Assembly (NCBI GenBank): GCA_021299635.1
Contig: JAJTFA010000002.1
Span: 249,110-313,109, forward strand
From: Sphingobacteriales bacterium
Lineage (GTDB): Bacteria > Bacteroidota > Bacteroidia > UKL13-3
DNA: 64,000 nucleotides
Direction of reading: 5' to 3'
Within the stretch, counting starts at the first letter, position 1, and the number at the start of each line of letters is the position of its first letter. Made by a program: the position numbers and the translations under genes. This document shows, piece by piece, positions 2,489 to 44,573 of this stretch. The notes below the pieces were generated by a model that worked only from the letters and a program-made list of their open reading frames with translations, was not told where the DNA came from and ran no database searches.

Positions 2489-3514
2489 ATGGGTTTATTT
2501 TGCCCCCTCATGCGTTTGTATAGGTATCTGTATATTTTTTATTGTTTAGGCGTTTCCTCAGCTTATGCCCAAATACTTCCTTCCTTTGGTAATTCAAGAA
2601 CGGGAGGTACCGGCATGCAATTTCTCAAGATTTCCCCGGATGCAAGGTCTATGTCGCTTGCAGGTGCTGCCGTTGCAGTAGCCAATGACGCATCAGCAAT
2701 GTACTGGAATCCGGCAGGCATAACAGGCGTAGATACGGGCAAAGTAAATCTCATGATTTCACATAGCCGCTACTTTGGTGATATCAACGCTAATTATGCA
2801 GGGGCTGTGATTAGAGCAGGACGCCATTCATTTGTTGGTGTTCAGGTTTTTTCCATGGATTATGGAGATATGAAGGAAACAACTGAGTTTGATCCCAGCG
2901 GCACAGGCAGAACATTCGGCATCAACAATTATTTTATCGGCCTTACATACGCCAAGGTATTAACCAATAATTTTAGTTTTGGACTCAATGGCAAATATAC
3001 CAATGAAAGTTTTGCAGGCATTAATGTACATAATGTACTGTTTGATTTAGGCCTTAAATATGACGTGGGCGTAAAGCATACCCGCTTTGGTGTTAACTTC
3101 AGTAATTTTGGCTTAAATGTTAAACCTTCAGGCGGTGTGCAGGTGTTAAAATTTGATGGCATGCAAAACATCAGCAATTTCAGCGATATCTCAGTTCCTG
3201 CATTGTTTCGTTTGGGTATTGCATTTGATCCTGTGCATACCAATGAGCATGTGCTTACTTTAGCCGGACAACTCAATCATCCTACGGATAATAATGAAAC
3301 CTATGTGTTGGCTGCCGAATATAGCTATCTTAAAATTGGTTACCTGAGAACAGGATACGAGTTTGGCTCTGATGAAAATTACATCGGCCCATCAGCAGGA
3401 ATTGGAATGAAAATTCTTCGCAGATTTGGTGGTTTAACCCTTGATTATGGCTTTGTAGCAAAAAACCGTTTAGGATACAACCAACGTATAACCTTAGCAA
3501 TATTGGTCAGATAA
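2489..3514 (+). CDS. T9SS-associated outer-membrane beta-barrel protein, PorQ/PorV family
   Basis: 341 aa with signal peptide (..LGVSSAYAQ). N-terminal motif FLKISPDARSMSLAGAAVAVANDASAMYWNPAGI resembles the conserved PorV/PorQ N-terminus. Remainder is Gly/aromatic rich and beta-barrel-like. The length favours PorQ. Confidence 0.55.
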   Translation: MGLFCPLMRLYRYLYIFYCLGVSSAYAQILPSFGNSRTGGTGMQFLKISPDARSMSLAGAAVAVANDASAMYWNPAGITGVDTGKVNLMISHSRYFGDINANYAGAVIRAGRHSFVGVQVFSMDYGDMKETTEFDPSGTGRTFGINNYFIGLTYAKVLTNNFSFGLNGKYTNESFAGINVHNVLFDLGLKYDVGVKHTRFGVNFSNFGLNVKPSGGVQVLKFDGMQNISNFSDISVPALFRLGIAFDPVHTNEHVLTLAGQLNHPTDNNETYVLAAEYSYLKIGYLRTGYEFGSDENYIGPSAGIGMKILRRFGGLTLDYGFVAKNRLGYNQRITLAILVR

Positions 3515-4762
3515 ATGAACGTAAAAGCAATTCATATATTTTTTGGCATCGCGATTTCTCTCTTGTTCACGTCTTGTTCAGCGCTGTTTGGCAATAAGGA
3601 AGATGAACAGGTGAATGAAATTTTTGTTCAGGGCGCTATAGACCCCAATCTTATTCCTCAAACCGTAGGATACGTTCCTGTTTATCCTTTTTTTCAGGGC
3701 TTCTCAAATCCCATTGATGTTTTTGTAGGATATGATGAATTGGTTTATGTAGTAGATGATAACGGACTAAATATTTTGGACCAAAAAGGTACGAAGTATC
3801 AGAATATTCCAATCCCCGGGGCAACAGATGTTACTCAGGACAGAAGATTGCATACATATGTTTGTGGCAGGGTTGAACTTCCAAGAGGAGCAGGTGGCGC
3901 CCTGGTAAACTTACCTGCAGTTTACCACCTGATGAATACGGCAACGGGAAACTACGTTATTGTAGATACACTCATTCACCCCGATTGCGATGCATCCAGA
4001 GGCGCAACCGCTTTCCGTGGAACCGATGATGAAAAAGTGCAATTCACTGGGCTGGCTACCTTACATGATAATACATTGTATGTAAGTCGAACCGGTCCGC
4101 GTAATGATCCCAATGCATTTTTCAGACCTGATAATGGGATATTATTATTTGATGCCGATGGATTAAATGTGGGTTTTGCAAACGGCCTAACACCCAATTC
4201 CCCTAGTTTAAAATCTGCCATGGGTATATCTGCTATTGCAACGCTGGCAGCACCTCCGCAGCGTCAGCAAGGCATCAATACAGGAAAAAGTTTTATGCTT
4301 ACTCAGGCCGATGCAACACTAAATATTGAATACCGTACCTTACACATAACGGTTTCAGACGATCCGGATGCCGGTACATCATACAACGAAACATCTTCGC
4401 TGCTCAATTACGACTATAGTAAAGGAGATAGATTTTTGTATCAACCTTTTCGGTTTAAAAATCCCGAAGATTGTTTTATTGCACCTGATGCGTTGCAATA
4501 TAGTTTTATTGTTGACAGCGGCACCGACTCTCTTTATATTTTTACGAATCAGGGAATAGAAGGGGTGAATCCGCCTGCAAACTCCGGCCTTAAAAAACAA
4601 GTGGCTGTTTCCTTTGGAGGGCCCGGTATAGATGGTAATTCCGGAGGTCCTTTCAGTTTCAAAGATCCAAGCGGTGTATGTTATTTCCGCAGAATGATTT
4701 TTGTTGCAGACAAAGGCAACAACCGCATTTGTCGTTATATGCTAAGCACCGATCTACAATAA
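3515..4762 (+). CDS. hypothetical lipoprotein with NHL-like beta-propeller repeat at the C-terminus
   Basis: 415 aa. Lipobox LLFTSC. The C-terminal segment IFVADKGNNRICRY resembles an NHL repeat. Starts at the stop codon of the preceding PorQ-like gene. Confidence 0.5.
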   Translation: MNVKAIHIFFGIAISLLFTSCSALFGNKEDEQVNEIFVQGAIDPNLIPQTVGYVPVYPFFQGFSNPIDVFVGYDELVYVVDDNGLNILDQKGTKYQNIPIPGATDVTQDRRLHTYVCGRVELPRGAGGALVNLPAVYHLMNTATGNYVIVDTLIHPDCDASRGATAFRGTDDEKVQFTGLATLHDNTLYVSRTGPRNDPNAFFRPDNGILLFDADGLNVGFANGLTPNSPSLKSAMGISAIATLAAPPQRQQGINTGKSFMLTQADATLNIEYRTLHITVSDDPDAGTSYNETSSLLNYDYSKGDRFLYQPFRFKNPEDCFIAPDALQYSFIVDSGTDSLYIFTNQGIEGVNPPANSGLKKQVAVSFGGPGIDGNSGGPFSFKDPSGVCYFRRMIFVADKGNNRICRYMLSTDLQ

Positions 4763-11754: not shown

Positions 11755-12567
11755 ATGAAAAAATTCTTGCTTTCATTTTTTATTGTTTCCGTTGGCAGTA
11801 TTTGCCTGTCAGTATTTACCGGAGATGCCTACCTGCATTCCAATACCGGTGGATCACCGTCAGCAAGCGGTTGCAGTTGTCATAGTGCAACCAATCATAA
11901 TGATGCGGCTACTTTTATAAGGATAGAGGATAGCCAGGGGAATGCAGTAACAAGCTATACGCCCGGTACTACTTACAAAATTATTTTCGGCACTGCTAAA
12001 GCAGGTAAGGTAAAGTTTGGATTTGCTTTTACTGCCGATCAGGGAACCTTAGCTGTAATACCAGGTAGTACCAAAATAAAAAAATCATCCACGTACCTAA
12101 CTCACACTTCTTCCGGAACGGCCGCACCAGTGCCTGACAGCGCAAAATGGGAAGCCAACTGGACTGCCCCTGCCTCTGCAACAGCAGTTACTTTTAATCT
12201 AGATGTTAATGCTACCAATAATAACAATGATGCTGATCCGGGGGATTTAATTTATAACAAATCAGTTACACTTACAAAATCATCAAACACAGGTATTGCT
12301 GAATCGGGAATATCTATGCTAAGTATTTTCCCTTCACCAGCACGCTCATTTGTTTACGTTAATTATGAATTAAAACAAAGCAATAATGTGATGATTAGCC
12401 TAAAGGATTTGCAAGGTAAAACAGTTAGCATCCTGTTTGATGAAAATGAATCAGCAGGTAAGCAAGTGCATAAATTCACTTTTGAAAACAATACTTCCAG
12501 CGGTTTTTATTTTGTTGAAATAAAGGCAGGTTCATTGGTTAAAACCCAGAAGATACTCATTCAGTAA
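11755..12567 (+). CDS. secreted hypothetical protein with T9SS C-terminal sorting domain
   Basis: Signal peptide. C-terminal ~80 aa (ISMLSIFPSPARSFVYVNYELKQ...FYFVEIKAGSLVKTQKILIQ) is a typical type-A Por_Secre_tail. N-terminal region contains GCSCH. Confidence 0.6.
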   Translation: MKKFLLSFFIVSVGSICLSVFTGDAYLHSNTGGSPSASGCSCHSATNHNDAATFIRIEDSQGNAVTSYTPGTTYKIIFGTAKAGKVKFGFAFTADQGTLAVIPGSTKIKKSSTYLTHTSSGTAAPVPDSAKWEANWTAPASATAVTFNLDVNATNNNNDADPGDLIYNKSVTLTKSSNTGIAESGISMLSIFPSPARSFVYVNYELKQSNNVMISLKDLQGKTVSILFDENESAGKQVHKFTFENNTSSGFYFVEIKAGSLVKTQKILIQ

Positions 12568-13436: not shown

Positions 13437-13816
13437 CCGCTTTTAATTTCATAATTTAAATGAGTAGCTGTATTTCTATTTTAATTACCGATAAAACCTT
13501 ACCAATGGCGGTATTGTTTGTTATTACAATCATACGGCTCGAATAAATCGTTTCCGCATATTTTTGATTCCTTATTGTGTAATATAATACACAAAATGAC
13601 GAAACTTATTTTTTTCTACAGCTGCACAAAGTTCACCAAATATGGATAAAGATTGAACTTTGTGTTTCAGATGGGAAAAGTTAGCCCCTAATTTATTTTC
13701 TTCATCAAACTTTTTAAATATTAGTTCTGTTAAACCATGTACTTGAAGACTGATATCAAGTAAAAAAACGTGGAGATCCGAAAATCCTTAAGAGTAGGCC
13801 AACTAAAAAAATAAAT

Positions 13817-14533
13817 ATGGAACATTTAAAAATTGCCAGCGACAATTATGTTGCTTTCACGTTCTTCATCGGAACAATGGCCATGATGGCTGCCTCGGTT
13901 TTCTTTTTCTTCGAATTAAACAACACTTCGAGCAAATGGAGAACTTCAGTATTGGTTTCAGGTCTTATCACTTTCATTGCAGCAGTTCACTACTACTACA
14001 TGAGAGGTTACAATCTTGAAACCGGTGATTCACCAACTTTCTTCAGGTATGTAGATTGGATTCTTACTGTACCTTTAATGTGTGTTGAATTTTATTTAAT
14101 TACCAAAAAGGCCGGTGCTAAAGTTGCCCTTCTTTGGAAACTCATTTTTGCCTCTCTGGTGATGCTGGTTACAGGTTACTTCGGTGAAACCATCGATCGT
14201 GATAACAGCGTAATGTGGGGCGTTATTTCAGGTCTTGCTTATTTCTACATTGCATACTTGGTATGGTTTGGCGAAGTTGCTCACCTTTCACAAAATGCTG
14301 GCCCTCAAGTTGCAAAGGCAACACGCGTTCTTGCTTGGTTCGTATTAGTGGGTTGGGCCATCTATCCATTAGGATATATTCTTGGAACTCCTGGAGGCTT
14401 GTTTGGTGTTCAGTTGGTTGCTGATCCTGCTGCCGCTTCACACTCTATGGACATAGTATACAATATTGCTGATGCGATTAATAAAATCGGTTTTGGTTTA
14501 GTTATCTATACTTTAAGTAGAAACGAAGACTAA
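13817..14533 (+). CDS. proteorhodopsin-type light-driven proton pump (microbial type-1 rhodopsin)
   Basis: 238 aa, 7 TM. Helix C RYVDWILTVPLMCVEFYL gives the D80/T84/E91 DTE motif, with Met88 at the PR-105 tuning site. His58 is present. Helix G YNIADAINKIGFGL carries D219 and the Schiff-base K223. Strong eye-alignment to green PR (ETGDSPTFFRY.DW.LTVPL..EFYLI). Confidence 0.9.
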   Translation: MEHLKIASDNYVAFTFFIGTMAMMAASVFFFFELNNTSSKWRTSVLVSGLITFIAAVHYYYMRGYNLETGDSPTFFRYVDWILTVPLMCVEFYLITKKAGAKVALLWKLIFASLVMLVTGYFGETIDRDNSVMWGVISGLAYFYIAYLVWFGEVAHLSQNAGPQVAKATRVLAWFVLVGWAIYPLGYILGTPGGLFGVQLVADPAAASHSMDIVYNIADAINKIGFGLVIYTLSRNED

Positions 14534-14560
14534 GATTTTAATATCTGAATCTATAACGAA

Positions 14561-14600
14561 AAGGGAGGATGTGCTTTTAAAGAACTACCTCCCTTTTTCA
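14561..14600 (+). terminator. putative terminator or attenuating hairpin between the rhodopsin and crtY-blh genes
   Basis: aagggagg-(19 nt loop)-cctccctt followed by ttttt. The loop is longer than ideal. Confidence 0.45.
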
Positions 14601-14674: not shown

Positions 14675-16696
14675 GTGCAAGCTACACAAACCATATCAGA
14701 AAATAATGTATCTGCGTGCGAGTATGATTATGTTTTTTGCGGTACAGGTGCTTCCGCATCGCTTTTATTATTGGAACTTCATCAAAATAATTTATTACAA
14801 TACGCAAATGTTTTACTCATTGATCCGGATAAGAAGGATAAGCGCGATAAAACATTCTGTTTTTGGGCAGATGCGGATGATCCGATTTCGGTTGACTTAA
14901 AATCACTCATCTCACATGCATGGGATCATGTTGCTCTGGCTGGTGAAGAAATTGAACCCATCTGGCCAATGCGTTACAACCATATTTCAAGCATTGATTT
15001 ATACAATCAGGTTCACAGATTAACCCAACAATATCAATGGCACAAGATTAATACGTGCGCTGACGAAGTTGGCTCTGATGAACAAGGGCCTTTTGTGTGT
15101 TGCAATGGAGAAAAGATTAGGGCTAAATATATTTTCGATTCGAGGCCCCCTGTTTATCATCCTCCTCAAGAAGGTGAAACACATATATCACAAAGTTTCG
15201 TGGGATGGATGATTGAAACGGAACAAGAAATTAAAAAACCAAATGCATTTCGGTTTATGGATTTTCAGATTGAGCAGCAAGGTTCAACGCAGTTTGTCTA
15301 TGTACTTCCGTTCTCTGCGCGTAAGGCCTTGGTTGAAGTTACCCGTTTTGGTGCAGAAACCATAAACCATACACAGGCCGAAAATTTACTTGCCGATTAT
15401 ATTCAGCGGAATTTCGGTGCGTATACTGTTGCAGATGTTGAAACAGGCTGCATCCCTATGAGCAATACCGTAATAGAAAGCAATGCTGTATCAGGTATTG
15501 TTTTATTGGGTGCCCGTAATTATCATATAAAACCAAGTACAGGCTATGCATTTAAAAACATGTATTACCATGCACGTAACATTGCCTCTGCAATTAAACA
15601 TAATAAGCCCGTTGAGTTATTAAACAAAACACATGTTAATGCCCACCACCACGGACGCCACTCATTTTATGATGGCTTGCTGCTTGATATATTAAAGAAC
15701 AAGCCACAGGAAGGAAAGCGCATTTTTGAGGCTTTGCTTGCAAAGGTGGATACAAAAAAGATATTAAATTTTTTAGACGAAAAAACCGGCATCGCAACCG
15801 ATATTTCAATCTTTAGTCAGTTGCCTTGGCAGCCTTTTATCAGCACCCTATTGAGCAGAAGTTTTGTGTACCCTTGGTTTAGGCCATTGCTATTAACACT
15901 TATGACCTGTTTGCTTGTTCTGGCTGGAAATTATTCAGCCATTCAAAACTATCTGGCCTATGGGCTATTTTTTGCAGGTCTGGTTGCGGTTGGCATTCCG
16001 CATGGAGCAGTAGATCATTTGTTGGAAACCGGAAAATGGAATAGGAAAGGTGCACCTGTATTTATCATCAGATACCTGATGTTAGCTGCAGGTATGGGTT
16101 TATTATGGTATGCATTACCAGGAGTGGCGCTTGCTGTTTTTCTGGCCTATTCTTCCTGGCATTTCGGTCAGGCTGATGGTAAAAAATGGAATTTCACCGA
16201 ATCAGTATCCTTCTTATGGGGTCTATCAGTCTTATTTTATATATTAGGTACACACCTTCAGGAAACCAATGTTATTCTCATGTCAATGGGTAAAGTTAGT
16301 TTGCCCTTTGCATGTTCTGTTTGGGCATTGCTGCCCTGGTTTTTATGGGCTTTGTATCACAAGCAAACCTCATTTTTTCTCACCTTGTGTTGGCTCATGC
16401 TTTCTTCCCAACTCCCTTTGCTTATAGCTTTTGGAATATATTTTATTGGTCAGCATAGCCTAAACGGATGGCAGGATATCCGCAGACACCTGCAGCTAAG
16501 CCATAGCAGAATATGGCTTCACTCAGTACCTTTTCATGCCGGAGCCTGGTTGCTGCTTGCAGGCTTTTTATTTCTTTGGCCCTTGGCCTTTCCTCATAAC
16601 GATATTAACCAATGGGCTGTATTCTTTGTCTTTATTGCCTGCATAAGCTTTCCTCATACCATTTATATGAATGTGGTATATAGGAAGAAGGGGTAA
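14675..16696 (+). CDS. bifunctional fusion: lycopene beta-cyclase (CrtY-type, FAD) N-terminal domain plus Brp/Blh beta-carotene 15,15'-dioxygenase C-terminal domain
   Basis: Single uninterrupted 673-aa ORF with GTG start. The N-terminal ~380 aa has a Rossmann motif (YDYVFCGTGASASLLLLEL) and a lycopene-cyclase-like body. The C-terminal ~290 aa is polytopic membrane with Blh His motifs IPHGAVDH, SWHFGQADG and GQHSLNGWQD. Confidence 0.8.
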   Translation: MQATQTISENNVSACEYDYVFCGTGASASLLLLELHQNNLLQYANVLLIDPDKKDKRDKTFCFWADADDPISVDLKSLISHAWDHVALAGEEIEPIWPMRYNHISSIDLYNQVHRLTQQYQWHKINTCADEVGSDEQGPFVCCNGEKIRAKYIFDSRPPVYHPPQEGETHISQSFVGWMIETEQEIKKPNAFRFMDFQIEQQGSTQFVYVLPFSARKALVEVTRFGAETINHTQAENLLADYIQRNFGAYTVADVETGCIPMSNTVIESNAVSGIVLLGARNYHIKPSTGYAFKNMYYHARNIASAIKHNKPVELLNKTHVNAHHHGRHSFYDGLLLDILKNKPQEGKRIFEALLAKVDTKKILNFLDEKTGIATDISIFSQLPWQPFISTLLSRSFVYPWFRPLLLTLMTCLLVLAGNYSAIQNYLAYGLFFAGLVAVGIPHGAVDHLLETGKWNRKGAPVFIIRYLMLAAGMGLLWYALPGVALAVFLAYSSWHFGQADGKKWNFTESVSFLWGLSVLFYILGTHLQETNVILMSMGKVSLPFACSVWALLPWFLWALYHKQTSFFLTLCWLMLSSQLPLLIAFGIYFIGQHSLNGWQDIRRHLQLSHSRIWLHSVPFHAGAWLLLAGFLFLWPLAFPHNDINQWAVFFVFIACISFPHTIYMNVVYRKKG

Positions 16697-28906: not shown

Positions 28907-30787
28907 ATGATACAAAATTTTAAATCACTGCACTATTACCTGAGAAATTCAGCTACTCAAATTAAAGGATTAGATCAGGTATATATGATGGAGAAATTGA
29001 AAGGTAGTTGGGTTGAACTAACCTATCGCGAGGTTCTCAGACAAATCAATGCACTATCAGCATACCTGCTTCAACACGGATTGGAAAAGCAGGATAAGGT
29101 TGCACTCATCATAGAAAACAGCCCGGAGTATATTTGTTTTGATCAGGCGCTGATGCAATTGGGCCTTGTAAATGTTTCCATTTATCCAACACTTTCCGAG
29201 TCTGAAGTAGAATACATCATCAATAACTCAGAGGCCAAAGCGATTTTAGTAGGCTCACCATTTTTATGGAAAAAAATCAACTCGGTTAAAGGCAATTGTC
29301 CCGAATTGAAATTATTTATTACAGCTTATGAAACCGATAAGCAGCCGGAAGGAACCATATCTTACACCGAAGCAGTTAAACAAGGTGAGGCTATTTACCC
29401 TTCAATAAAAGATGCAATAGAAAGACGTTTGGAGTCGGTAACCAGAGATGATCTGGCTTGTTTGCTTTATACCTCCGGAACCACCGGCAAACCAAAAGGT
29501 GCCATGCTTTCCCACAACAATTTTATTACCAATGTGGAGATGGCTATTGATTTAATGCCAATTGTAAATAATGAGTTTCGCTTTCTTTCATTTTTACCAA
29601 TGAGTCACGTCTATGAGCGCACAGCTACATACTATTGCAGCATTATTGTAGGAGCTCAGGTAGCGTTTGCCCAAAGTTTGGAAGCACTATCAGGTAATAT
29701 TATGGAGGTGCAGCCAACAGCATTGCTTACCGTGCCAAGGCTAATGGAGCGCATCGAAGAAAGGGTTAGAAAAACAATTACCCAGAAAGGTGGCTTTGGC
29801 TTAATGGTGTTCAATTGGGCATTTAAAGTTGGTGAACAAAGAAGGCACAATAAAGAACAAGGAAGGTCAAATGGCATTTGGCTGAAACTGCAGCTTGCCT
29901 TGGCAGAAAAACTGGTGTTTTCTAAAATAAAGGCAAAATTGGGTGGTAAAATGAAGCTGATGATTTCCGGTGGGGGAGCCATGCCTCAGCATGTGGGTGA
30001 GTTTTTTGCCAATATGGGTGTTACCGTTTGTGAAGGTTATGGATTAACAGAAACCTCTCCACTGGTTTGTGTTAATGAGTGGGAGCGTCAGGTTTTTGGT
30101 GCTGTTGGGCGCATTGGTAAAGGCTGCGAAGTGGCCATACAAAATCCTGAGACCAAGGAAGTTTATACCATTCAAACCAACCAATCATACAACCCGACTT
30201 TTGAAAGTCCGGAAGGAGAAATTTTGGTGCGTGGTGTAAATGTGATGAAAGGATACTGGAAAATGCCCGAAGCAACGGCAGAAACTATTGATAAGGATGG
30301 CTGGTTGCATACCGGTGACGTAGGTAAATTTTATAAAGGATACCTGAAGATTACCGATCGTATCAAAAATATTTTGGTAAACTCTTTCGGAAAAAATGTT
30401 TACCCTACACCTATTGAAAACACCTATTTGTTGTCACCAAAAATTGAACAGATCTTTTTAATTGGCGATAACCGTGAATACCTGACGGCAATCATTATCC
30501 CCTCGCGTGAGGAGATGAAGGAGCGCTTTAAAGTGAAGGAATCTTACTTTGCGGAACCAACAGAGTTTATTGATGACAAAGAAGTTTTTGACTGGTTGCT
30601 CGAAGACATGAAAAAACTAGAGAAAGATTTGGGCAAGTTTGAACGTATTAAGCATTTTATTGTTAAGCGCAAACCTTTCAGCATTGAAACAGGGGAGCTC
30701 ACTCCTAAGCAAAGCGTGAAGCGCAAAGTAGTAGAGCAGAAGTATGCCAAGGAGATTGATGATATGTATGCATTAACTGTTATCTGA
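28907..30787 (+). CDS. long-chain fatty acid--CoA ligase (AMP-binding)
   Basis: AMP-binding signature LLYTSGTTGKPKGAML, ...GYGLTETS..., ...WLHTGDVG... A start at M27 (MMEKLKG) is possible. Confidence 0.8.
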   Translation: MIQNFKSLHYYLRNSATQIKGLDQVYMMEKLKGSWVELTYREVLRQINALSAYLLQHGLEKQDKVALIIENSPEYICFDQALMQLGLVNVSIYPTLSESEVEYIINNSEAKAILVGSPFLWKKINSVKGNCPELKLFITAYETDKQPEGTISYTEAVKQGEAIYPSIKDAIERRLESVTRDDLACLLYTSGTTGKPKGAMLSHNNFITNVEMAIDLMPIVNNEFRFLSFLPMSHVYERTATYYCSIIVGAQVAFAQSLEALSGNIMEVQPTALLTVPRLMERIEERVRKTITQKGGFGLMVFNWAFKVGEQRRHNKEQGRSNGIWLKLQLALAEKLVFSKIKAKLGGKMKLMISGGGAMPQHVGEFFANMGVTVCEGYGLTETSPLVCVNEWERQVFGAVGRIGKGCEVAIQNPETKEVYTIQTNQSYNPTFESPEGEILVRGVNVMKGYWKMPEATAETIDKDGWLHTGDVGKFYKGYLKITDRIKNILVNSFGKNVYPTPIENTYLLSPKIEQIFLIGDNREYLTAIIIPSREEMKERFKVKESYFAEPTEFIDDKEVFDWLLEDMKKLEKDLGKFERIKHFIVKRKPFSIETGELTPKQSVKRKVVEQKYAKEIDDMYALTVI

Positions 30788-31545
30788 TGCACAAGCATAT
30801 TACCATATGCTTATTGGCAATGGTTTTATGCGTATGCACCAATGCCCAGTTTCGTTTACCCGATTCTTTATTTCTTAAAAACGGACACGTATTTGTAGAG
30901 ACAGGAGTTTCTATTCCTGTAATGGATTATGCCTCTACAGATTTTATTGTATTGTCTTCAGGCTTTGCACAAACAGGTTATAGTTGGCAAGCAGGTATGC
31001 AATATGATGTGCTTCCCTGGCTTGGATTAGGAATTCAATATTATGTAAATGAAAATAATTTTGATGATGCAGCACTTGCGCAATCATACATTGAATTATC
31101 AGCTAACAATCCGCGTTTACCCATTATTTATAACGGTTTCCAATCGGACCCATGGAAAATGCGGGGTATGATGTTTGGATTATACCTGCCTGTAAGAAAT
31201 TATTTGAGCACCTTTACCATTGGTATGTATGCAGGTTTTATGAATGCTACCTTACCTGCCTCTCAGTTATATATAACAGAGCGTGCAACCGGGCAGCCTG
31301 CAACCATCTTTCAGTATGAGGCTTCAGGCAATGATGCAGCGTATTACTTTTTTGTCGGTTTCAGAACCCGATTGTATAAAAATTTAGTCTTTACATCAAA
31401 GGCTTCATTCCTTTATTCAGAGCAAAGGTTTGAAGAAATATCTGGCTATTTCACCGGCTTGCAGCGGGCCATTTCATTTAGTCCGTATACGCAGTACCAT
31501 CATATCATTAACCTAAATGCAGGGCTTGGCTGGCAATTCAGGTAG
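30787..31545 (+). CDS. hypothetical outer-membrane beta-barrel protein
   Basis: Signal peptide (LLAMVLCVCTNAQ). Alternating aromatic pattern. C-terminal ...GLGWQFR ends in Phe-Arg. Confidence 0.45.
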   Translation: MHKHITICLLAMVLCVCTNAQFRLPDSLFLKNGHVFVETGVSIPVMDYASTDFIVLSSGFAQTGYSWQAGMQYDVLPWLGLGIQYYVNENNFDDAALAQSYIELSANNPRLPIIYNGFQSDPWKMRGMMFGLYLPVRNYLSTFTIGMYAGFMNATLPASQLYITERATGQPATIFQYEASGNDAAYYFFVGFRTRLYKNLVFTSKASFLYSEQRFEEISGYFTGLQRAISFSPYTQYHHIINLNAGLGWQFR

Positions 31546-31686
31546 TTGTTGTAATTTAGCTTTTCATGCAACATAAGGTAAGCCGGTTTGCAGAATGCGC
31601 AAAAAGCACATGATATATTTGGTAAAATTAATTAACGAGCTTGGTAATAATTCAGTTAATTTGTGACTGAGATTAAAATAATTCAT

Positions 31687-32694
31687 ATGAAAAAGAAGTT
31701 TAATTTAATGGTATTTAGCCTAATCGGATTAATATCCTGCATAGCTGCCCAGACACCACAAAAAAAAGTTTTTTTACCCTACTTTGAAGCCATCAACATC
31801 AAGAAGGATTATCAGATTTCTACAACCAAACTGATTAGAAACTATATCGAGACTGAAAACAGATATCAGGTAATGATGCTTGAAGGTAAGGATACCTTGT
31901 TTGATGCGGACCAACCCCTGGCAGTATTGAAGGGTAAAGCCATGGAGATGGGTGCCGATTATTATTTGAAAGGCTCACTTAACCGGATTGGTGAAAGTGT
32001 GATTGTAAATGTTACCCTCATTGAAACGGCTACCGGTAATAAAGTTTGGTTTGATCAGTTAAAGGCCATGGGTCCGGAAGACCTTGACCCTATTATGCAG
32101 CGCATAGCCAAAGCATTGGGTACAGATGAAAAAGCCGCAAATGATAATGATATTTATGCGGTCACCAATAATGAATCAGTACAATTGAAACAAAAGCAAA
32201 CAAATAATAGTTTTGGTTTATCCTTAGGGGGTATCCAAATGCTAATGCCAAACACATTACAGGCTACTATGATTGGAGTTGGTTGGTATTTTGATGCACG
32301 TAATGTAATAGTTGATATCAGACCTTCTATTTCTACTAATCCAAGTAAATTATTCATGTTTAATGTAGCTCTTGATTTGTTTAGGCCGCATACTACAAAG
32401 AGTAATACTTTTTTCTATGGTGGAGGCGCTAGTTTTTCTTATACTGATATCACCATGAGCGATAATATTTCTAGTTATGAAGTAGATGGAACAGGTTTAT
32501 CGTTTAGTTTAGGCGGAGGTTATTTACTTAATCGCAATGCAGGCGCATCGGTTAGAATTGGTGCTTATGCATTTTATGCATTATATGATTTGGAAGGATC
32601 TACATGGAGTTCGTTCGGGTTTGGTTCAAAACAATTAACAGAAAGCAGTCCTTTAGGTATTGAAATACGAGCAGAGATTATGTTTAACCAATAA
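31687..32694 (+). CDS. hypothetical exported protein (N-terminal alpha/beta domain plus C-terminal beta-barrel-like region)
   Basis: Signal peptide MKKKFNLMVFSLIGLISCIAAQ. The C-terminal third has Gly/Ser/aromatic-rich beta-strand repeats and a terminal F-N-Q. Start moved to the ATG at 31687. Confidence 0.45.
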   Translation: MKKKFNLMVFSLIGLISCIAAQTPQKKVFLPYFEAINIKKDYQISTTKLIRNYIETENRYQVMMLEGKDTLFDADQPLAVLKGKAMEMGADYYLKGSLNRIGESVIVNVTLIETATGNKVWFDQLKAMGPEDLDPIMQRIAKALGTDEKAANDNDIYAVTNNESVQLKQKQTNNSFGLSLGGIQMLMPNTLQATMIGVGWYFDARNVIVDIRPSISTNPSKLFMFNVALDLFRPHTTKSNTFFYGGGASFSYTDITMSDNISSYEVDGTGLSFSLGGGYLLNRNAGASVRIGAYAFYALYDLEGSTWSSFGFGSKQLTESSPLGIEIRAEIMFNQ

Positions 32695-33976: not shown

Positions 33977-35899
33977 CTATGCGCTCACTCTTTCTACAAT
34001 GAGTTGTTTCACGGTTTGCATAATTGCTGTAGCATCAAAGCCGCACTCTGCATATAGTTCTTTTTGTTCTCCATGCTCAATAACCGCATCCGGCATGCCC
34101 AGCATTTTTACCTGTGTATGGTATCCGTATTTTGCCATAAACTCTAGCACTGCACTACCTGTGCCACCTACAACGGTTCCATCTTCTACAGTAACTATCT
34201 TTTTGTAATTGGTAAATACTTCGTGTAGCATCTCTTCGTCCAATGGTTTAACAAAACGCAAATCATAATGACCAACGGAAATACCTTCTTCTGACAGTTG
34301 GTTGGCAGCTTGTGCGGCAATATTTCCAATATGGCCAATGGTTAATAAAGCCAACTCATCACCATCGCGCAATTTACGGCCCTTACCAATCTCCAACTCT
34401 TTAAATGGTGTTTTCCACTCAGGTATTACTCCGTTGCCACGCGGATAGCGTATGGAGAAAGGACCTGCATTTTTTTCAAGCGTTGCCGTATACATCAAGT
34501 TACGTAACTCTTCTTCGTTCATCGGAGCACTTACCACCATATTAGGTACGCATCTCATATATGGGATGTCTATCATGCCATGATGCGTAGGTCCGTCTGC
34601 ACCGGCTAGGCCTGCTCTGTCCATACAAAATATTACATGTAGTTTTTGCAAGGCCACATCATGCACTACCTGATCATATGCACGCTGCATAAATGATGAG
34701 TAGATATTGCAAAAAGGAATTAACCCTTGTGTTGCAAGTCCTGCACTAAAAGTTACTGCATGCTGCTCTGCAATGCCTACATCAAAGGCGCGTTTAGGCA
34801 TGGCCTTCATCATGATATTCATGGAAGAACCAGAAGGCATAGCAGGTGTAATGCCTACAATTTTTTCGTTTTTCTCAGCCAATTCAACCAAGGTATGTCC
34901 AAATACATCTTGGTATTTTGGTGGTTGCGGCTTATCTGAAACAGATTTATATATTTCACCGGTTACTTTATCAAACAAACCCGGTGCATGCCATTTGGTT
35001 TGGTCTTTTTCTGCCAGGGCATAACCTTTACCTTTTACGGTAACACAATGCAATAATTTAGGTCCGGGTATTTTCTTTAAATCATTCAACACTTTAACCA
35101 TATGGTTTACGTCATGCCCATCAATGGGGCCAAAATAACGGAAGCGCAATGATTCAAACATATTGCTGTGCTTAAGCACACCAGATTTTATAGTATCATG
35201 CACCTTTGAAAGAATATCTTGAGATATATGCCCGATTTTGTTCAGCCGATCAAGCGCCTTCCAAACATCATCTTTAAATTTATTATAAGTAGGTGAGGTA
35301 GTAATATCGGTTAAATATTCCTTGAGTGCGCCTACATTTGGGTCTATACTCATGCAATTGTCATTCAGCACCACAATGAGGTTAGAGTCTTCTACACCTG
35401 CATGGTTCAGGCCCTCAAAGGCAAGTCCTGCGGTCATGGCACCATCGCCTATAACAGCAATATGTTGGCGGTCTGTTTCACCTTTAAGCCTGGAAGCAAC
35501 AGCCATGCCTAGCGCAGCTGAAATAGAAGTGGATGAGTGACCCACACCAAAAGTATCATACTCACTTTCGCTGCGTTTTGGAAAACCCGAAATACCTTTA
35601 TAAACCCTGTTTGTATGGAAAACATCTCTACGGCCCGTAAGTATTTTATGGCCATATGCCTGATGGCCTACATCCCAAACCAATTGGTCGTAAGGTGTAT
35701 TAAAGGCATAATGCAGGGCCACGGTTAGTTCCACCACGCCCAAACTGGCACCAAAGTGGCCCCCGTAAACAGAGACCATATCAATGATATATTGCCTTAA
35801 CTCGGCACATACCTTTACCAAGTCCTCCTCCTTAACCTTGCGTAAATCAGCAGGATAATGAATGGGGCTTAGCAGTTCTCCCGGTTTTATTTCCATCAT
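33977..35899 (-). CDS. dxs: 1-deoxy-D-xylulose-5-phosphate synthase
   Basis: 640 aa. ThDP motif ...GDGAMTAGLAFEGLNHAG..., transketolase-like domains. Confidence 0.9.
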   Translation of the reverse strand: MMEIKPGELLSPIHYPADLRKVKEEDLVKVCAELRQYIIDMVSVYGGHFGASLGVVELTVALHYAFNTPYDQLVWDVGHQAYGHKILTGRRDVFHTNRVYKGISGFPKRSESEYDTFGVGHSSTSISAALGMAVASRLKGETDRQHIAVIGDGAMTAGLAFEGLNHAGVEDSNLIVVLNDNCMSIDPNVGALKEYLTDITTSPTYNKFKDDVWKALDRLNKIGHISQDILSKVHDTIKSGVLKHSNMFESLRFRYFGPIDGHDVNHMVKVLNDLKKIPGPKLLHCVTVKGKGYALAEKDQTKWHAPGLFDKVTGEIYKSVSDKPQPPKYQDVFGHTLVELAEKNEKIVGITPAMPSGSSMNIMMKAMPKRAFDVGIAEQHAVTFSAGLATQGLIPFCNIYSSFMQRAYDQVVHDVALQKLHVIFCMDRAGLAGADGPTHHGMIDIPYMRCVPNMVVSAPMNEEELRNLMYTATLEKNAGPFSIRYPRGNGVIPEWKTPFKELEIGKGRKLRDGDELALLTIGHIGNIAAQAANQLSEEGISVGHYDLRFVKPLDEEMLHEVFTNYKKIVTVEDGTVVGGTGSAVLEFMAKYGYHTQVKMLGMPDAVIEHGEQKELYAECGFDATAIMQTVKQLIVERVSA

Positions 35900-38512: not shown

Positions 38513-39676
38513 TTAGTCTTCCAGATATACTTCTTCTGCAAAAACAGGCGCATTATACTTCTCGAGCACTGCATCTTTTTGCTCTTCAAGATTTACAGCA
38601 TACCTGAGTCCAGCGCCTTTGCCTATAACCTTAACCAGGTTTTGATCAACCAGGGCGGTAAAATCTCTTTGTATGGTTTTTCTGTTGCAGTCAAACTCAC
38701 TCACCAGATCTTTTGTAGAAATAAAGCCTTTATGTTGTATAATATACATGATGAGTTTTTGGCGCTTGTTTAGGATGCTTTCATCTATTTCTCTTAGCCG
38801 ATATCCGCGCTCAAAAACATAGTTCATGATATTTTTCTGACGTGGATTTAATTGTTCAAAATCTATTTGTTTTCTGAAATAGGAACGAAGCAATAATTTA
38901 AGACGGTTTAGTTGTGCTGCATACAAATCAGTGCCAAAGTCAAGCTCTTTTTGTATGCTGTTTACATTTTCCTGCGGAGTTTCTGTGCGATTTTCAATAA
39001 AGAAGTTTTGGTATTCATTCTTATTCAGATACAACTCATGCTCAATACTAATCAATCCCAGCAAATCCATTCCCTTCTTTCTAAGCCAGAAATTTTGAAG
39101 CAGTGATGCTATTTTACTTTTTGCCTCAGAAAAAATACGTGTATTAAGCAATTTGAAATGTAAAATCCAGGATTGAATAATGGGGTGCTGCTCTTCATCC
39201 TGATTCAGGTACTCAAATAGACCTTCCAGTTCAAGCTCAGCTGTAGGACTTAGTTTCTCAGGACTACGCAGGCTGTTTACGGAGAATAGGTTTATATCTT
39301 CACGGTTATTATATAAATCAAGTATCAGCAGTTTTTGAAGCTGATAAAGCATAGATACATGCAAAGGCTGGTCTAATTGTGAATTAAGCCAAGCCTCTGC
39401 TTTCATATATTGTTCCACGCCTCTTTCAGCCAAACCCTTCGGCCTCATTTTACCCTGAACAATATATTTTACTGTTTTTATATCAATGATATTGTGATCT
39501 AGCGCATTGGCGTAATAAGTGCGCAGAATTAGAGAGTTTTGCTGCTCTATCTGCCTGATATGATCAGGCAAATCAATGAAGTCATGTATTTTGATGAGCT
39601 CTTCATGCTGATGAAAACAGTCATAGTGTTTTGCATCAATAGCTATAGCAGGCTCAAACTTATTGATTAATATCAC
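38513..39676 (-). CDS. hypothetical protein with C-terminal winged-HTH DNA-binding domain
   Basis: 387 aa, GTG start. C-terminal ~60 aa (GFISTKDLVSEFDCNRKTIQRDFTALVDQNLVKVIGKGAGLRYAV) is DeoR/Fic-associated wHTH-like. No canonical HPFx(D/E)GNGR Fic motif. Confidence 0.5.
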   Translation of the reverse strand: MILINKFEPAIAIDAKHYDCFHQHEELIKIHDFIDLPDHIRQIEQQNSLILRTYYANALDHNIIDIKTVKYIVQGKMRPKGLAERGVEQYMKAEAWLNSQLDQPLHVSMLYQLQKLLILDLYNNREDINLFSVNSLRSPEKLSPTAELELEGLFEYLNQDEEQHPIIQSWILHFKLLNTRIFSEAKSKIASLLQNFWLRKKGMDLLGLISIEHELYLNKNEYQNFFIENRTETPQENVNSIQKELDFGTDLYAAQLNRLKLLLRSYFRKQIDFEQLNPRQKNIMNYVFERGYRLREIDESILNKRQKLIMYIIQHKGFISTKDLVSEFDCNRKTIQRDFTALVDQNLVKVIGKGAGLRYAVNLEEQKDAVLEKYNAPVFAEEVYLED

Positions 39677-39856
39677 TCATCCAAAAGTACATGCATTATA
39701 TATGCGGTGTAGACTGAGTACCTCTCAAACAGTTGTGGATATTGGTATTTTAGAGATAGGCAAGGTTTAACAATTTCTTAAGATGCCCGAAAACATTAAG
39801 AAACACGGGATTTAAAAAAATAGACACGCCTCTAAAACGGCTGTTAATAATTGTTG

Positions 39857-41392
39857 TTATAAGGTTTCTAGCGTTTGCAGATAATCTTCTGCTTGCTTAA
39901 GTATCTCCTGCTTTTCTGCACTGGCCATTTTGTTCAAGACCTGATACATCATGGATATACGTTGATTGTTGCTTAATAGGTTTCTGTTGCGCTCGTAAAA
40001 GTGCCAGTACAAACTATTAAACGGGCAGGCTTTATCGCCATGTTTTTTCTTTTTATCATAATAACATCCCTTGCAGTAATCGCCCATTTTATCAATGTAA
40101 TTGGCAGATGAAATATAAGGCTTGCTGCCTACTATTCCCCCATCGGCAAACTGACTCATGCCTCGTGTATTGGTAACTTCAACCCATTGCAGCGCATCTA
40201 TATAAATACCCAGATACCATTTGTCCACTTCATCCGGATGGATTCCGGCAAGCAGCGCAAAGTTGCCTGTAACCATTAATCGTTGTATATGATGTGCGTA
40301 GGCATTTTCTAAACTGTTATGTACTGCCTGTTTCACGCAATTCATTTTGGTTTCTCCGTTCCAGAAATAGCCGGGCAATTGGGTTGAGTGGTTAAAGAAA
40401 TTTAGTGTTTCATAGGCCGGCATTTTCCACCAGTAAATACCCCTCATATATTCACGCCAACCAATGATTTGCCTTGCAAATCCTTCTATCTGAGGTAAGC
40501 TGATGTTTTCAGGATTTTTCCTCCACGCCTCAATAGCTGTATGAACTACTTCTGCAGGAGAGAGCATTTTTGTATTAAGTGCAAAAGATAAACGTGAGTG
40601 AAACAAAAATGGCTCCTGAACAGACATGGCATCCTGGTAGGTTCCAAAATAGGGCAAATGATGTGCAACAAAATATTGTAGCAACTGCAGCGATTGTTTG
40701 CGCGAAACCGGCCACAGGAATGCTTCAGGTTGTATACTGCCTATATATTTAATGCCACTGTTTTTTATTTCCGCTGTAACCTCTGATACATCATTTTTTA
40801 CTATATCATATGCAGGTGCAGCGGGTGTGCCAGTCCATTTTTTTCGGTTTTCGGAATCATAGTTCCATTTACCACCAATGGGCTCTGTGCCATCCATCAG
40901 TATACCATATTGTTTTCTGATTTGCCTGTAAAATGTTTCCATCAGAATTTGCTTCTTGCCTTCAAACAAATCTTTTACCTGCATGCGGGTACTCATAAAA
41001 TGTTCGGTATCAAAAGAGCGGTATGGAATGGATAGACTTTCGCAAAATAGCCGGAGTTGTTCATCAATACGCCATTCATCAGGTAACTGGTATTGAAATT
41101 CCTGAATGCGATATTGTTTAATAAGCTGAGATAAATTTTCGGCTAGTATATGTTTATTGGAAGAATCATTGATGGTATAATAAATTACCTGATGACCTGC
41201 TTGTTCCAGCGTTTGGGCAAAGTTGCGCATTGCTGTAAAAAAACCAGCAAGCTTTTGTATGTGATGCGTTACATAATCTGTTTCCTGCCGCATCTCAAAC
41301 AAGCAGTAAATATGTGATTCATTTACCTCTTGAAACCAACTGTGCTGTTCGTTTAACTGATCACCTAAAATTAGCCTAAGCGTTTTAGCCAT
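39857..41392 (-). CDS. FeS-containing bacterial cryptochrome/photolyase (FeS-BCP; PhrB/CryB-like (6-4) photolyase family)
   Basis: 511 aa, MAKTLRLILGDQLN... C-terminal DYCKGCYYDKKKKHGDKACPF gives C-x2-C-x12-C plus an upstream Cys (MNCVKQA), matching the 4-Cys [4Fe-4S] ligand spacing of PhrB. Confidence 0.8.
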   Translation of the reverse strand: MAKTLRLILGDQLNEQHSWFQEVNESHIYCLFEMRQETDYVTHHIQKLAGFFTAMRNFAQTLEQAGHQVIYYTINDSSNKHILAENLSQLIKQYRIQEFQYQLPDEWRIDEQLRLFCESLSIPYRSFDTEHFMSTRMQVKDLFEGKKQILMETFYRQIRKQYGILMDGTEPIGGKWNYDSENRKKWTGTPAAPAYDIVKNDVSEVTAEIKNSGIKYIGSIQPEAFLWPVSRKQSLQLLQYFVAHHLPYFGTYQDAMSVQEPFLFHSRLSFALNTKMLSPAEVVHTAIEAWRKNPENISLPQIEGFARQIIGWREYMRGIYWWKMPAYETLNFFNHSTQLPGYFWNGETKMNCVKQAVHNSLENAYAHHIQRLMVTGNFALLAGIHPDEVDKWYLGIYIDALQWVEVTNTRGMSQFADGGIVGSKPYISSANYIDKMGDYCKGCYYDKKKKHGDKACPFNSLYWHFYERNRNLLSNNQRISMMYQVLNKMASAEKQEILKQAEDYLQTLETL

Positions 41393-41406
41393 ATTTGCTG
41401 CAGGTT

Positions 41407-42018
41407 TTAGGGTTTGGCATAAGGCAGCTCTTCAATTTTAGATAGGCGGTAATATGTTTCCAATCCACCTGCACCAATGCTGCCGCTATTTCCCAGTTGC
41501 AGGATATTGGATTCATTTACTAAATCCTGCTCCAGTATAATTTCTTGCACTTTACCAATCATTAAAATGGTTCCGTTTGCTTTAACAGGAATTTCCTCCT
41601 CTAATGTGAGCCCTATTTTTACGAGGGATTCTTTTACATAGGGAGCTTTGATAGCTGGTGTATATTCCGGTGTAAGCCCTGTTGCTTCAAACTCACTGAT
41701 GGCATAACGGGCAGAGGTTTGATGAGCCTGCCTGTAAATGCCTTCGTGCACATGGTTAATGGTAAAGCAACCCGTTTGTTTAAGATATTCGTAGGTATGA
41801 CGTTCCACACTTACAGGACGCATAATAAATCCCATGAGTGGTGGATTGGCACCGATATGAACAACTGAATTGAAAATAGCCAGATTGGTGATGCCGGCCT
41901 CATTGATGGTACCTATGAGATTGGCTGCGCGGATGCCGGGCAATGAATTGATTAAATTGGTTCTGGGTTGTTTATCCATTCCCAATATATCTGATAAAGT
42001 AATTATGGTTCTACTCAT
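41407..42018 (-). CDS. flavin reductase-like (FMN-binding split-barrel) protein
   Basis: 203 aa with Flavin_Reduct-like domain (..LIGTINEAGITNLAIFNSVVHIGANPPLMGFIMRP..). ATG confirmed at 42016-42018. Confidence 0.65.
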   Translation of the reverse strand: MSRTIITLSDILGMDKQPRTNLINSLPGIRAANLIGTINEAGITNLAIFNSVVHIGANPPLMGFIMRPVSVERHTYEYLKQTGCFTINHVHEGIYRQAHQTSARYAISEFEATGLTPEYTPAIKAPYVKESLVKIGLTLEEEIPVKANGTILMIGKVQEIILEQDLVNESNILQLGNSGSIGAGGLETYYRLSKIEELPYAKP

Positions 42019-42025
42019 GTATGGC

Positions 42026-42712
42026 TTATCTTATGGCTTGCATGCCACCGTCAACTGGTATAATCTGACCGGTAATCCAATTGGCATTTATGAGAAATAG
42101 TGCTGCATCAGCTATATCATCCGGTGTTCCAATTTTTTTCAGCGGGTGTCTTTCTTCTGCAGCCTTAATTTTTGCTTCTGCATTTAATAACTTTTCTGCC
42201 AGCGGTGTTTGTGTAAGCGATGGAGCAATGGCATTCACCCTTATTTTGGGTGCAAACTCTGCAGCAAGGCTTCTGGTTAGGCCTTCAATGGCTCCTTTTG
42301 CTGCACTGATGCTTGCATGGAACGGCATGCCTGTTTGCACGGCAACGGTACTAAATAAAGTAATACTTGGTGCAGTTGCCTGTTGCAGTTGAGGTAAATA
42401 ATGCCGTATGGTTTTTATGGCACCCAATACATTGATGTTCCAGTCGTTTAAAAAATCCTCGTTTTTTATTGAGCGAAAAGGTTTGAGTGAAATGGTACCG
42501 GGGCAGTAAATCAGCGCATCAATGGGTTTATCTATTGATGGGAAATCCGGATTATCTTGTGCTATATCAACCATAAAATGATTTATACCATTTCCTGCGT
42601 TTAGGTTTCCAGAGGTTCTGGAAAGTGCTGTAATTTCATGTGTTACGCTCAGCTTTTTGGCAAGTGCGCCACCAATGCCACTGCTTGCCCCTATCATTAA
42701 TGCATGCTTCAT
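42026..42712 (-). CDS. SDR-family short-chain dehydrogenase/reductase
   Basis: MKHALMIGASSGIGGALAKKL (TGxxxGxG), catalytic Y-x3-K in ...ASISAAKGAIEGL... Start moved to the ATG at 42712. Confidence 0.8.
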   Translation of the reverse strand: MKHALMIGASSGIGGALAKKLSVTHEITALSRTSGNLNAGNGINHFMVDIAQDNPDFPSIDKPIDALIYCPGTISLKPFRSIKNEDFLNDWNINVLGAIKTIRHYLPQLQQATAPSITLFSTVAVQTGMPFHASISAAKGAIEGLTRSLAAEFAPKIRVNAIAPSLTQTPLAEKLLNAEAKIKAAEERHPLKKIGTPDDIADAALFLINANWITGQIIPVDGGMQAIR

Positions 42713-42732
42713 ATACAAGTAACATCCTTTAA

Positions 42733-43872: not shown

Positions 43873-44573
43873 TTATTTGCACCGGGTATTAGCACTATCC
43901 ATCTGAAAGCCCATTGCCATGTAAGTGTATATACCGGTATGCGCGCTGCCTTGAGGATTTGCAGCCACTCTTGTTTTTTAAAACCCCGTAATACTGATAA
44001 TGGTGCATCATTTTTAACAAGGTATGAGCGGGAAAATAGGCGTGTTAGCCATGCAATACTATAATAAGCAAAAGGGTGGCGGTGCAGATCATTAATGATA
44101 ACGGCCTGTTTGGCCATTTTAACAGACCATTGGATTAATTCGGAGATTTCTTCGTCAGCCAGGTGGTGACAAAACAAGGCATTTACTACCACATCGGCTT
44201 CAATATTTTCCTGAAGCAGTTTTCTATAATCATTTTTAATCAGGCTTATTTCAGGATATGCAGCGCATGCCTTTATTGCATAATTAATGCAATCTTGCTT
44301 CAGATCTACTCCGGTAAGTTTTACCGATAGTTTTTTTGCACGAGCCCATTTAGCAATTGCTTTTAGTGTATCTCCGCCTCCGCAACCGATATCCAGAATA
44401 TGAACAGTTTTATAGGTTGGCAGAGATAACTGATTGAGTGCAGCAATGGTAGCTGCATGGCCTCCCAAAAGTGTATTGATGATGTCCAGCTCAAGCAGAT
44501 TTCTGTTGAGTGCATCAGCCGGAATATCGGATGCATCCAGCAGTTCTTTTTGTTTGGAGCGTGCGTTAAACAT
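43869..44573 (-). CDS. class I SAM-dependent methyltransferase (SrsB-like position)
   Basis: SAM motif I ILDIGCGGGDTL. First ATG at 44573; the tracked TTG is at 44582. Confidence 0.8.
   Translation of the reverse strand: MFNARSKQKELLDASDIPADALNRNLLELDIINTLLGGHAATIAALNQLSLPTYKTVHILDIGCGGGDTLKAIAKWARAKKLSVKLTGVDLKQDCINYAIKACAAYPEISLIKNDYRKLLQENIEADVVVNALFCHHLADEEISELIQWSVKMAKQAVIINDLHRHPFAYYSIAWLTRLFSRSYLVKNDAPLSVLRGFKKQEWLQILKAARIPVYTLTWQWAFRWIVLIPGANK

Follow-up and report, generated by a model that had tools for sequence, protein, structure and literature searches.

The nearest described relative of the rhodopsin reported here is NM-R1, the proton pump of the marine flavobacterium Nonlabens marinus S1-08, which is reported to bind zeaxanthin and myxol and whose structures with these carotenoids are deposited as 9JOU and 9JOV (depositors' preprint). 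More distant are green proteorhodopsin (GPR, from EBAC31A08; 2L6X, 7B03) and, in another clade, xanthorhodopsin (XR) and Kin4B8 (3DDL, 8I2Z). We compare them here with the product of a gene found at positions 13817–14533 (+ strand, ATG start, 238 codons) of a 64,000-nucleotide stretch of DNA from a Sphingobacteriales bacterium (assembly GCA_021299635.1, contig JAJTFA010000002.1), the whole of which is called the window below. From its sequence, register, fold, conservation and gene neighbourhood, all of them observed, we infer pumping, colour and retinal supply: the product is very probably a green-absorbing proteorhodopsin (PR) of the Bacteroidota clade that pumps protons outward, with retinal coming from the adjacent CrtY-Blh fusion protein. 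It is a routine, uncharacterised member of a well-known clade, already present in public databases; what we add to a preliminary description of the locus, made from its letters, is the fenestration residue Gly135, the CrtY-Blh fusion and a structured leader RNA.

According to the literature, a carotenoid antenna requires a glycine at position 156 of XR (Trp138 of bacteriorhodopsin), a residue that gives access to the retinal ring through what is called a “fenestration”. Nearly all PRs of the Bacteroidota reportedly combine it with a methionine at position 105, which is their green-type residue. Lutein and zeaxanthin are bound, with 35–40% energy transfer, by the fenestrated PRs KR1, from Dokdonia eikasta, and EinA29G6, from an uncultured freshwater flavobacterium, the second of which has also been used as a positive control for proton pumping. 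GPR, by contrast, has Phe at XR-156 and therefore no fenestration, and it binds no carotenoid.

Sequence, Fold and Pump Class

Pfam Bac_rhodopsin (PF01036) matches the 238-aa protein with E = 2.4e-41 (142 bits for a cut-off of 24.6); in the NCBIfam search of the window proteins, no model matched it. The preliminary description had proposed a PR-type proton pump on the basis of H58, D80, T84, M88, E91, D219 and K223, and a script count found all seven residues at these numbers in the open reading frame (ORF), together with the two motifs it had quoted, RYVDWILTVPLMCVEFYL in helix C (from residue 77) and YNIADAINKIGFGL in helix G (from residue 215). The HMMER alignment to GPR (7b03/8cnk) runs without gaps through helices B-C and G, so that the claimed register is right: RYVDWILTVPLMCVEFYL pairs with GPR RYIDWLLTVPLLICEFYL, YNIADAINKIGFGL, which carries D219 and K223, pairs with GPR YNLADFVNKILFGL, and AAVHYYYMRG, which carries H58, pairs with GPR FWHYMYMRG. 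The DTE triad D80/T84/E91 stands at D97/T101/E108 of GPR, H58 at H75, D219 at D227 and K223 at K231, and M88 occupies the colour-tuning position 105, where GPR itself has leucine (L105); the GPR numbering is the established one. Identity to GPR is ~43% overall, and GPR further differs in having a signal peptide and in being gammaproteobacterial.

Sodium-pumping (NaR) and chloride-pumping (ClR) paralogues are frequent in flavobacteria and weakly similar to the window protein, which could speak for a rhodopsin that pumps Na+ or Cl−, or even one that carries protons inward. As the preliminary description had argued, the triad is neither NDQ (Na+) nor NTQ (Cl−), both being excluded by the residues themselves, D80 and E91, which stand where those pumps carry N and Q (positions 85 and 96 of bacteriorhodopsin); since the carboxylates of donor and acceptor are present and invariant, and since NaR and ClR structures score merely ~1e-11 to 1e-16, we hold a pump of this other kind to be very improbable.

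A search of all PDB sequences returned 9JOV and 9JOU, both entered as “Proteorhodopsin”, as the best matches (E = 1e-88), followed by Med12 PR and green PR (E ~1e-50) and blue PR (1e-46). Further down came the flotillin-associated rhodopsins 9r21 and 9r23 (~1e-35), GR (6nwd, 1e-26), XR (3ddl, 2e-23), Kin4B8 (6e-22), Cl− pumps (~1e-15), Na+ pumps (~1e-11) and bacteriorhodopsin (~1e-10). In the comparison with PR, XR, NaR and ClR references, which had been named beforehand as the check to make, PRs are thus closest, and the lysine and the DTE residues are in register. XR and Kin4B8 do share with the window protein the DTE pump triad, the fenestration glycine (here Gly135) and a conserved tyrosine in transmembrane helix 6 (TM6), as would be expected if it belonged to the XR/GR/Kin4B8 clade, with its keto-carotenoid antenna, rather than to the PRs. 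Their identity to it is 26–28% (E = 1e-22 to 1e-23), far below the PR similarity (1e-88 to 1e-50), and these scores imply a placement in the PR clade; moreover, H58, the equivalent of PR His75, is conserved, and T191, at the bottom of the TM6 site, is polar like the residue of hydroxy-xanthophyll binders, where XR and GR are hydrophobic. We therefore give an XR-family pump very little credence.

Modelled with AlphaFold2 from an alignment of 44 sequences, the protein shows seven long helices and a mean predicted local distance difference test score (pLDDT) of 90.6. The best Foldseek match of the model is 9jou, the zeaxanthin-bound NM-R1 (TM-score 0.89/0.92), followed by GPR structures, and the top matches are PR structures (TM-score 0.84–0.92). 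NM-R1 and the window protein are identical in 142 of 233 aligned columns (~61%); they share the helix C motif RYVDW.LTVPLMCVEFYL, the Met tuning residue, the WG fenestration pair and the TM6 pattern Y..GTP, and differ in their hosts and in the F-G loop, which is 7 residues longer in the window protein.

Many copies of the protein are labelled “sensory rhodopsin” by JGI pipelines, and the flotillin-associated rhodopsins are moderately similar to it (33% identity at the E-value given above). A photosensor or regulatory rhodopsin, sensory or flotillin-associated for instance, is nonetheless a most unlikely identity for it: the labels are automatic COG-style names, the full donor and acceptor set is conserved, and the adjacent genes encode an inositol monophosphatase and CrtY-Blh, none of them a transducer, a flotillin or a signalling protein.

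The proton-pump assignment is thus supported wherever sequence can test it, with DTE, His, Met and Asp/Lys in register, and the protein is almost certainly an outward H+ pump. Two points weigh against the fuller picture of a green-absorbing proton pump supplied with retinal from next door. We found no functional data for the window protein or for its exact freshwater clade, as far as the literature could be searched, and no crtE, crtB, crtI or crtZ occurs in the 64-kb window, where the supply of lycopene and xanthophyll was accordingly not located.

Conservation across Freshwater Bacteroidota

The same protein, with no residue changed, occurs on contigs in 54 index blocks, comprising metagenome-assembled genomes (MAGs) at NCBI (e.g., GCA_046304215.1) and JGI and Logan assemblies, and the gene order around these identical copies matches that of the window. 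At NCBI it is found as MCE2787207.1 and other entries, under the names “bacteriorhodopsin [Sphingobacteriales bacterium]” or “bacteriorhodopsin-like [Bacteroidota bacterium]”. Relatives number at least 8000 in the protein database (the best 120 being 87–95% identical), at least 590 in species-representative genomes, and 1445 in a library of 50%-identity representatives at E ≤ 1e-3. The best 80 of the at least 590 species-level relatives, nearly all freshwater Bacteroidota MAGs, define the species loci (L007–L086) counted below. The organism names on their records disagree among themselves, some titles carrying Bifidobacterium, Synechococcus or Methylotenera, and were kept out of the finer taxonomy. 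Across these 80 loci, the rhodopsin is 86–95% identical to the window protein, while the CrtY-Blh beside it is mostly just 30–50% identical (a few up to ~60%); the remaining flanking genes show no synteny.

For the substitution analysis, the window gene was compared with 74 full-length, ungapped homologues. Median identity is 78% at the nucleotide level and 50% at third positions; the proportion of synonymous differences (pS) is 0.73, i.e., saturated, that of nonsynonymous differences (pN) is 0.07, and dN/dS, for pairs with a computable dS, is ~0.02–0.07, mostly 0.02–0.05. Saturated synonymous sites combined with a low dN/dS indicate purifying selection and not a recent transfer: recent horizontal transfer, which might have accounted for the 86–95% protein identity, is ruled out by the third positions (~50%), pS (~0.73) and dN/dS (~0.02–0.05). 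The rhodopsin is, in other words, an unusually constrained membrane protein that was not recently transferred. In the 74 homologues, 143 of the 238 positions are invariant, all functional residues included (H58, D80, T84, M88, E91, W134, G135, D219 and K223).

Under such strong purifying selection, the gene is presumably functional. The carotenoid backbone genes missing from the 64-kb window are what could be cited for a relic, unexpressed or without function in its host; yet the reading frame is unbroken, contigs of many samples carry the identical protein, dN/dS is as low as stated, and the leader, the promoter-like motif and the terminator described below are conserved, all of which makes a relic extremely improbable.

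A Possible Carotenoid Antenna

In the PDB alignments, Gly135 (in VMWGVISG) corresponds to the glycine of the WG pair of NM-R1 and to the second W of the WW pair of Med12 PR; KR1 and EinA29G6 likewise have glycine at XR-156. In TM6, the motif GYILGTP (GYMAGTP in NM-R1) provides Y187, I188 and T191, which fit the Y, I and T tabulated in the literature for EinA29G6 at Kin4B8 positions 204, 205 and 208; this mapping was transferred through the NM-R1 alignment and the published table rather than read from a direct alignment to Kin4B8. The next residue, Pro192, is the same as in NM-R1 and differs from the Glu of EinA29G6 and the Asp of KR1 at Kin4B8 position 209, as compared through the same table. 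KR1 and EinA29G6 have been seen experimentally to bind lutein and zeaxanthin, and EinA29G6 to pump protons.

Other residues of the pocket argue against an antenna. The residues reported to hold the carotenoid ring of NM-R1 in place (W139, L143, M195, W201 and Y202) are V132, V136, I188, G194 and L195 in the window protein. In addition, the longer F-G loop (residues 193–212, nt ~14393–14452, GGLFGVQLVADPAAASHS) is modelled with low confidence (pLDDT ~56) and replaces the contacts made by W201 and Y202 of NM-R1; its pattern, GTPGGLFG.QLV.DPAAA, is well conserved among the 74 homologues of the freshwater clade. Since the ring-clamp residues are specific to NM-R1 and do not define the family, their mismatch lowers the case for an antenna without excluding it. 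On balance, we lean slightly towards a 3-hydroxylated xanthophyll being bound as a light-harvesting antenna through the Gly135 opening, as in NM-R1, KR1 and EinA29G6.

A CrtY-Blh Fusion behind the Rhodopsin Gene

In marine flavobacteria such as Dokdonia, blh adjoins the PR gene, and the PR clusters of SAR86 carry crtEIBY-blh. The same two enzymatic steps, encoded by separate crtY and blh genes in such clusters, stand beside the rhodopsin of the window in a single 673-aa polypeptide (14675–16696, +), whose N-terminal half is a predicted lycopene beta-cyclase domain (Pfam Lycopene_cycl, residues 18–391, E = 8e-44) and whose C-terminal half is a beta-carotene 15,15'-dioxygenase domain (Pfam BCD, residues 435–667, E = 3e-32). 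The Blh half exceeds the cut-off of NCBIfam TIGR03753 (blh_monoox; 112.8 bits for 95.25), and its histidines 443, 448, 496, 527, 594 and 661, candidates for the four iron ligands, are invariant in 26 homologues of 47–68% identity. As for the cyclase half, it passes the cut-off of Pfam PF05834 (150.6 bits for 23.4) and falls below the equivalog and subfamily cut-offs of the NCBIfam CrtY models (44.3 bits for 215 and 89.5 bits for 209.5); judged by these scores, it belongs to the cyclase family and may be a monocyclase or a bicyclase.

Both domains were found in one protein in all 120 homologue clusters among the matches listed, in which the fusion, where it is named, goes by “lycopene beta-cyclase” or “hypothetical”. 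Of the 80 species loci, 50 have both halves beside the rhodopsin and 53 have at least the CrtY half there; the fusion usually lies directly downstream of the PR, at times upstream. One locus (L046, in a MAG record titled Cryomorphaceae) has two tandem PR paralogues (577–1296 and 3958–4677 of that locus) that flank the fusion gene, each with a DUF805-type leader of the kind described below. We found no description of a bacterial CrtY-Blh fusion in the searchable literature, and the sole described Blh fusion that we found is eukaryotic, the CrtI-CrtB-CrtYc/d-Blh protein of Thecamonas, whose cyclase is of another type than the CrtY of the window. The fusion is widespread and apparently undescribed.

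We predict that CrtY-Blh is the source of the retinal. By joining the two steps, the fusion may channel lycopene directly to retinal and so keep the retinal branch separate from a possible pool of antenna xanthophyll. As regards isoprenoid precursors, DXS, of the methylerythritol phosphate (MEP) pathway, is encoded at 33977–35899.

A Structured Leader RNA Upstream

The DUF805 RNA reportedly owes its name to its position 5' of genes for DUF805-domain proteins. It is listed in Rfam as RF03081, a candidate cis-regulatory RNA of Bacteroidota. Upstream of the PR gene, a block of ~65 nt ending ~20 nt before the start codon is conserved in related loci, although the synonymous sites of the PR itself are saturated. 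In the window (13738–13804, +), this leader matches the full RF03081 model (positions 1–68) with 44 bits (E = 8e-7 locally, 1e-4 for the whole window), and it is the sole Rfam match of the 64 kb at E ≤ 0.05. Its score lies below the gathering score of 51.1, but among 14 related loci, 13 have an equivalent PR leader that exceeds this value (57.8–76 bits), so that the window copy is best called a divergent member of the family.

The window leader has the two hairpins of RF03081, the first formed by 13740–13746 with 13756–13762 and the second, a short stem, by 13772–13774 with 13785–13787; it also has the CCGAAAA loop, which is essentially invariant in PR-linked leaders, and the equally constant tail AGAGUAGG (GAGUAGG; 13791–13798), placed 18 nt 5' of the ATG. 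It departs from the Rfam family in preceding a rhodopsin gene rather than a DUF805 gene, and in a putative pairing that does not figure in the nested structure given by Rfam. The motif is also unmentioned in the main text of Weinberg 2017.

To follow the leader further, we built a covariance model of our own from 18 copies and searched 823 kb (the window and PR loci). It gave 47 matches, every one of them directly 5' of a PR gene, and of the 80 species loci, 45 have the leader before the PR, as the window does. In its helices, 96% of the alignment cells are paired, and compensatory changes are seen in six of the eight pairs. Covariation scores 0.455, compared with 0.14 in shuffles (none of 500 reached 0.455) and no more than 0.075 with slid partners, values obtained on an alignment that was fitted to the model and thus favours structure. 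Folded by itself, the window leader is thermodynamically no better than its shuffles (z = −0.44), and support for its structure accordingly comes only from covariation. The loop of hairpin 1 can form Watson–Crick pairs, one bulged base being allowed, with the three nucleotides that immediately precede stem 2 in 32 of the 47 copies, whereas random re-pairing of loops and linkers gave 7.1 ± 2.3 (maximum 15 in 2000 trials). Such an excess suggests that the leader forms an H-type pseudoknot, proposed in the window between AC(U)G (13749–13752) and CGU (13769–13771).

We also searched contigs from metagenomes with the 3' core CCGAAAAKCCNNNAGAGTAGG and obtained at least 120 loci (L087–L206); the pattern was taken from PR-linked copies, so the proportions that follow are biased. 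Among the matches listed, the downstream ORF, which mostly starts 15–30 nt after the motif, is a PR in 15 of 115 cases, and the others fall into 64 unrelated clusters, including DUF805 proteins, outer-membrane protein (OMP) beta-barrels, aquaporin, AhpC peroxiredoxin, AHSA1, DUF5684, TM2, Yip1, SnoaL and many small lipoproteins. The full two-hairpin model was found at 106 sites in 100 of the metagenome loci listed, with up to three sites per locus. Copies of this 5' leader thus stand, several to a genome region at times, before a mixed set of genes that is rich in envelope functions. A riboswitch specific to rhodopsin is ruled out, as the same full motif precedes dozens of unrelated genes.

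The fixed distance to the start codon, the invariant unpaired nucleotides and the probable pseudoknot suggest a translational element that would respond to a ligand or to a protein. Going further, and tentatively, since we think it rather doubtful, PR translation could be gated by the leader, as a riboswitch or by protein binding, in response to a signal shared with an envelope regulon; the latter may comprise DUF805 proteins, aquaporin, OMP beta-barrels, peroxiredoxin and small lipoproteins, and an AAAC-N17-TGTT promoter would add a gene-specific layer. If this were true, the PR would be the first member of the regulon of this orphan RNA to have an easily scored phenotype.

Promoter-Like Motif and Transcript End

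Upstream of the leader, and ending ~9 nt before it, lies a bipartite promoter-like motif (13706–13731, +) made of CAAAC (13706–13710), 17 nt and TGTT (13728–13731). Its two halves recur before the 47 PR-linked leaders: AAAC is found at −60 to −30 in 33 of them (9.1 ± 2.6 in shuffles) and TGTT at −25 to −8 in 34 (5.5 ± 2.0 in shuffles), with the exact spacing TAAAC-N16-TGTT in 13. Taken together, (T)AAAC-N16/17-TGTT is enriched ~4x to 6x over shuffles. In seven independent metagenome PR loci, the halves occur in 7/7 and 6/7, while before non-PR copies of the DUF805-type RNA they are at chance level (13/43 and 6/43). The bipartite motif is, therefore, specific to PR-linked leaders, and it may be a promoter read by a sigma factor or regulator of its own. 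Matches in a sigma-70-like promoter scan stayed below the shuffled expectation. As for the Bacteroidetes −7 motif, TAnnTTTG is not enriched in the window, where its nearest copy lies ~250 nt upstream, and TAnnTT(T)G precedes just 11 of the 47 leaders.

Between the PR and the fusion gene, RNA folding reveals a terminator-like hairpin (14558–14598, +), in which GGGAGG pairs with CCUCCC between an A-tract and a U-tract; at −19.6 kcal/mol (z = −4.0), it is more stable than any of 200 shuffles, and it went unlisted by a simple terminator scan because of its long loop. A strong hairpin with such tracts at this place indicates that the PR probably has a terminator of its own, its transcript probably ending there, before CrtY-Blh.

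Other Genes in the Window

The preliminary description had placed the gene in a “gliding/T9SS” Bacteroidetes. The second half of this label holds for the type IX secretion system (T9SS), as the window encodes the SprA/Sov translocon (55821–62981, −; TIGR04189, 2539 bits), a PorV/PorQ-family protein (2489–3514, +) and two cargo proteins that carry the Por_Secre_tail sorting domain of T9SS at their C-terminus (11755–12567, +, and 54496–55713, −). The first half does not: no gld gene was seen among the window ORFs of at least 150 aa, and gliding is thus unsupported by the window. Next to the PorV-like gene, a 415-aa ORF (3515–4762) belongs to no clear family.

A run of minus-strand genes (38513–46502) includes a type III polyketide synthase (44566–45765), a UbiA prenyltransferase (45651–46502), a methyltransferase, an FAD monooxygenase, a short-chain dehydrogenase/reductase and a flavin reductase, with a photolyase-related DPRP protein (39857–41392) and a helix-turn-helix protein beside them. 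It may be a cluster for an alkylresorcinol- or quinone-type pigment or lipid, possibly with a link to light. Lastly, Pfam gave no match at E ≤ 0.01 for two adjacent ORFs, 30787–31545 (+, 252 aa) and 31663–32694 (+, 343 aa).

Working Model and Significance

In the mechanism that we propose, the gene would be expressed from the PR-specific promoter-like motif through the pseudoknotted leader of the DUF805 class. Lycopene, made by a pathway presumably encoded outside the window, would be converted by the adjacent bifunctional CrtY-Blh to beta-carotene and then to two molecules of retinal, and all-trans-retinal would be linked to Lys223 as a Schiff base, with Met88 setting green absorption. After photoisomerisation, the proton would be taken up by Asp80, which would share the counter-ion complex with His58 and Asp219, and Glu91 would reprotonate the Schiff base from the cytoplasmic side; the net outward transport of H+ would add to the proton-motive force.

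By itself, the rhodopsin adds little, being one more copy of an abundant freshwater Bacteroidota PR type that carries generic annotations. Less ordinary are the leader RNA and the promoter-like motif in front of it, the CrtY-Blh fusion behind it, and a fenestration signature within a hyper-conserved clade. CrtY-Blh is a compact two-step module for retinal, possibly useful for the heterologous expression of rhodopsins, and in the PR, the DUF805 RNA has behind it a gene whose function is known and whose output can be measured. Finally, the extreme constraint on the protein (~90% amino acid identity), together with its fenestration signature, makes this clade a good test case for carotenoid-antenna phototrophy in lakes.

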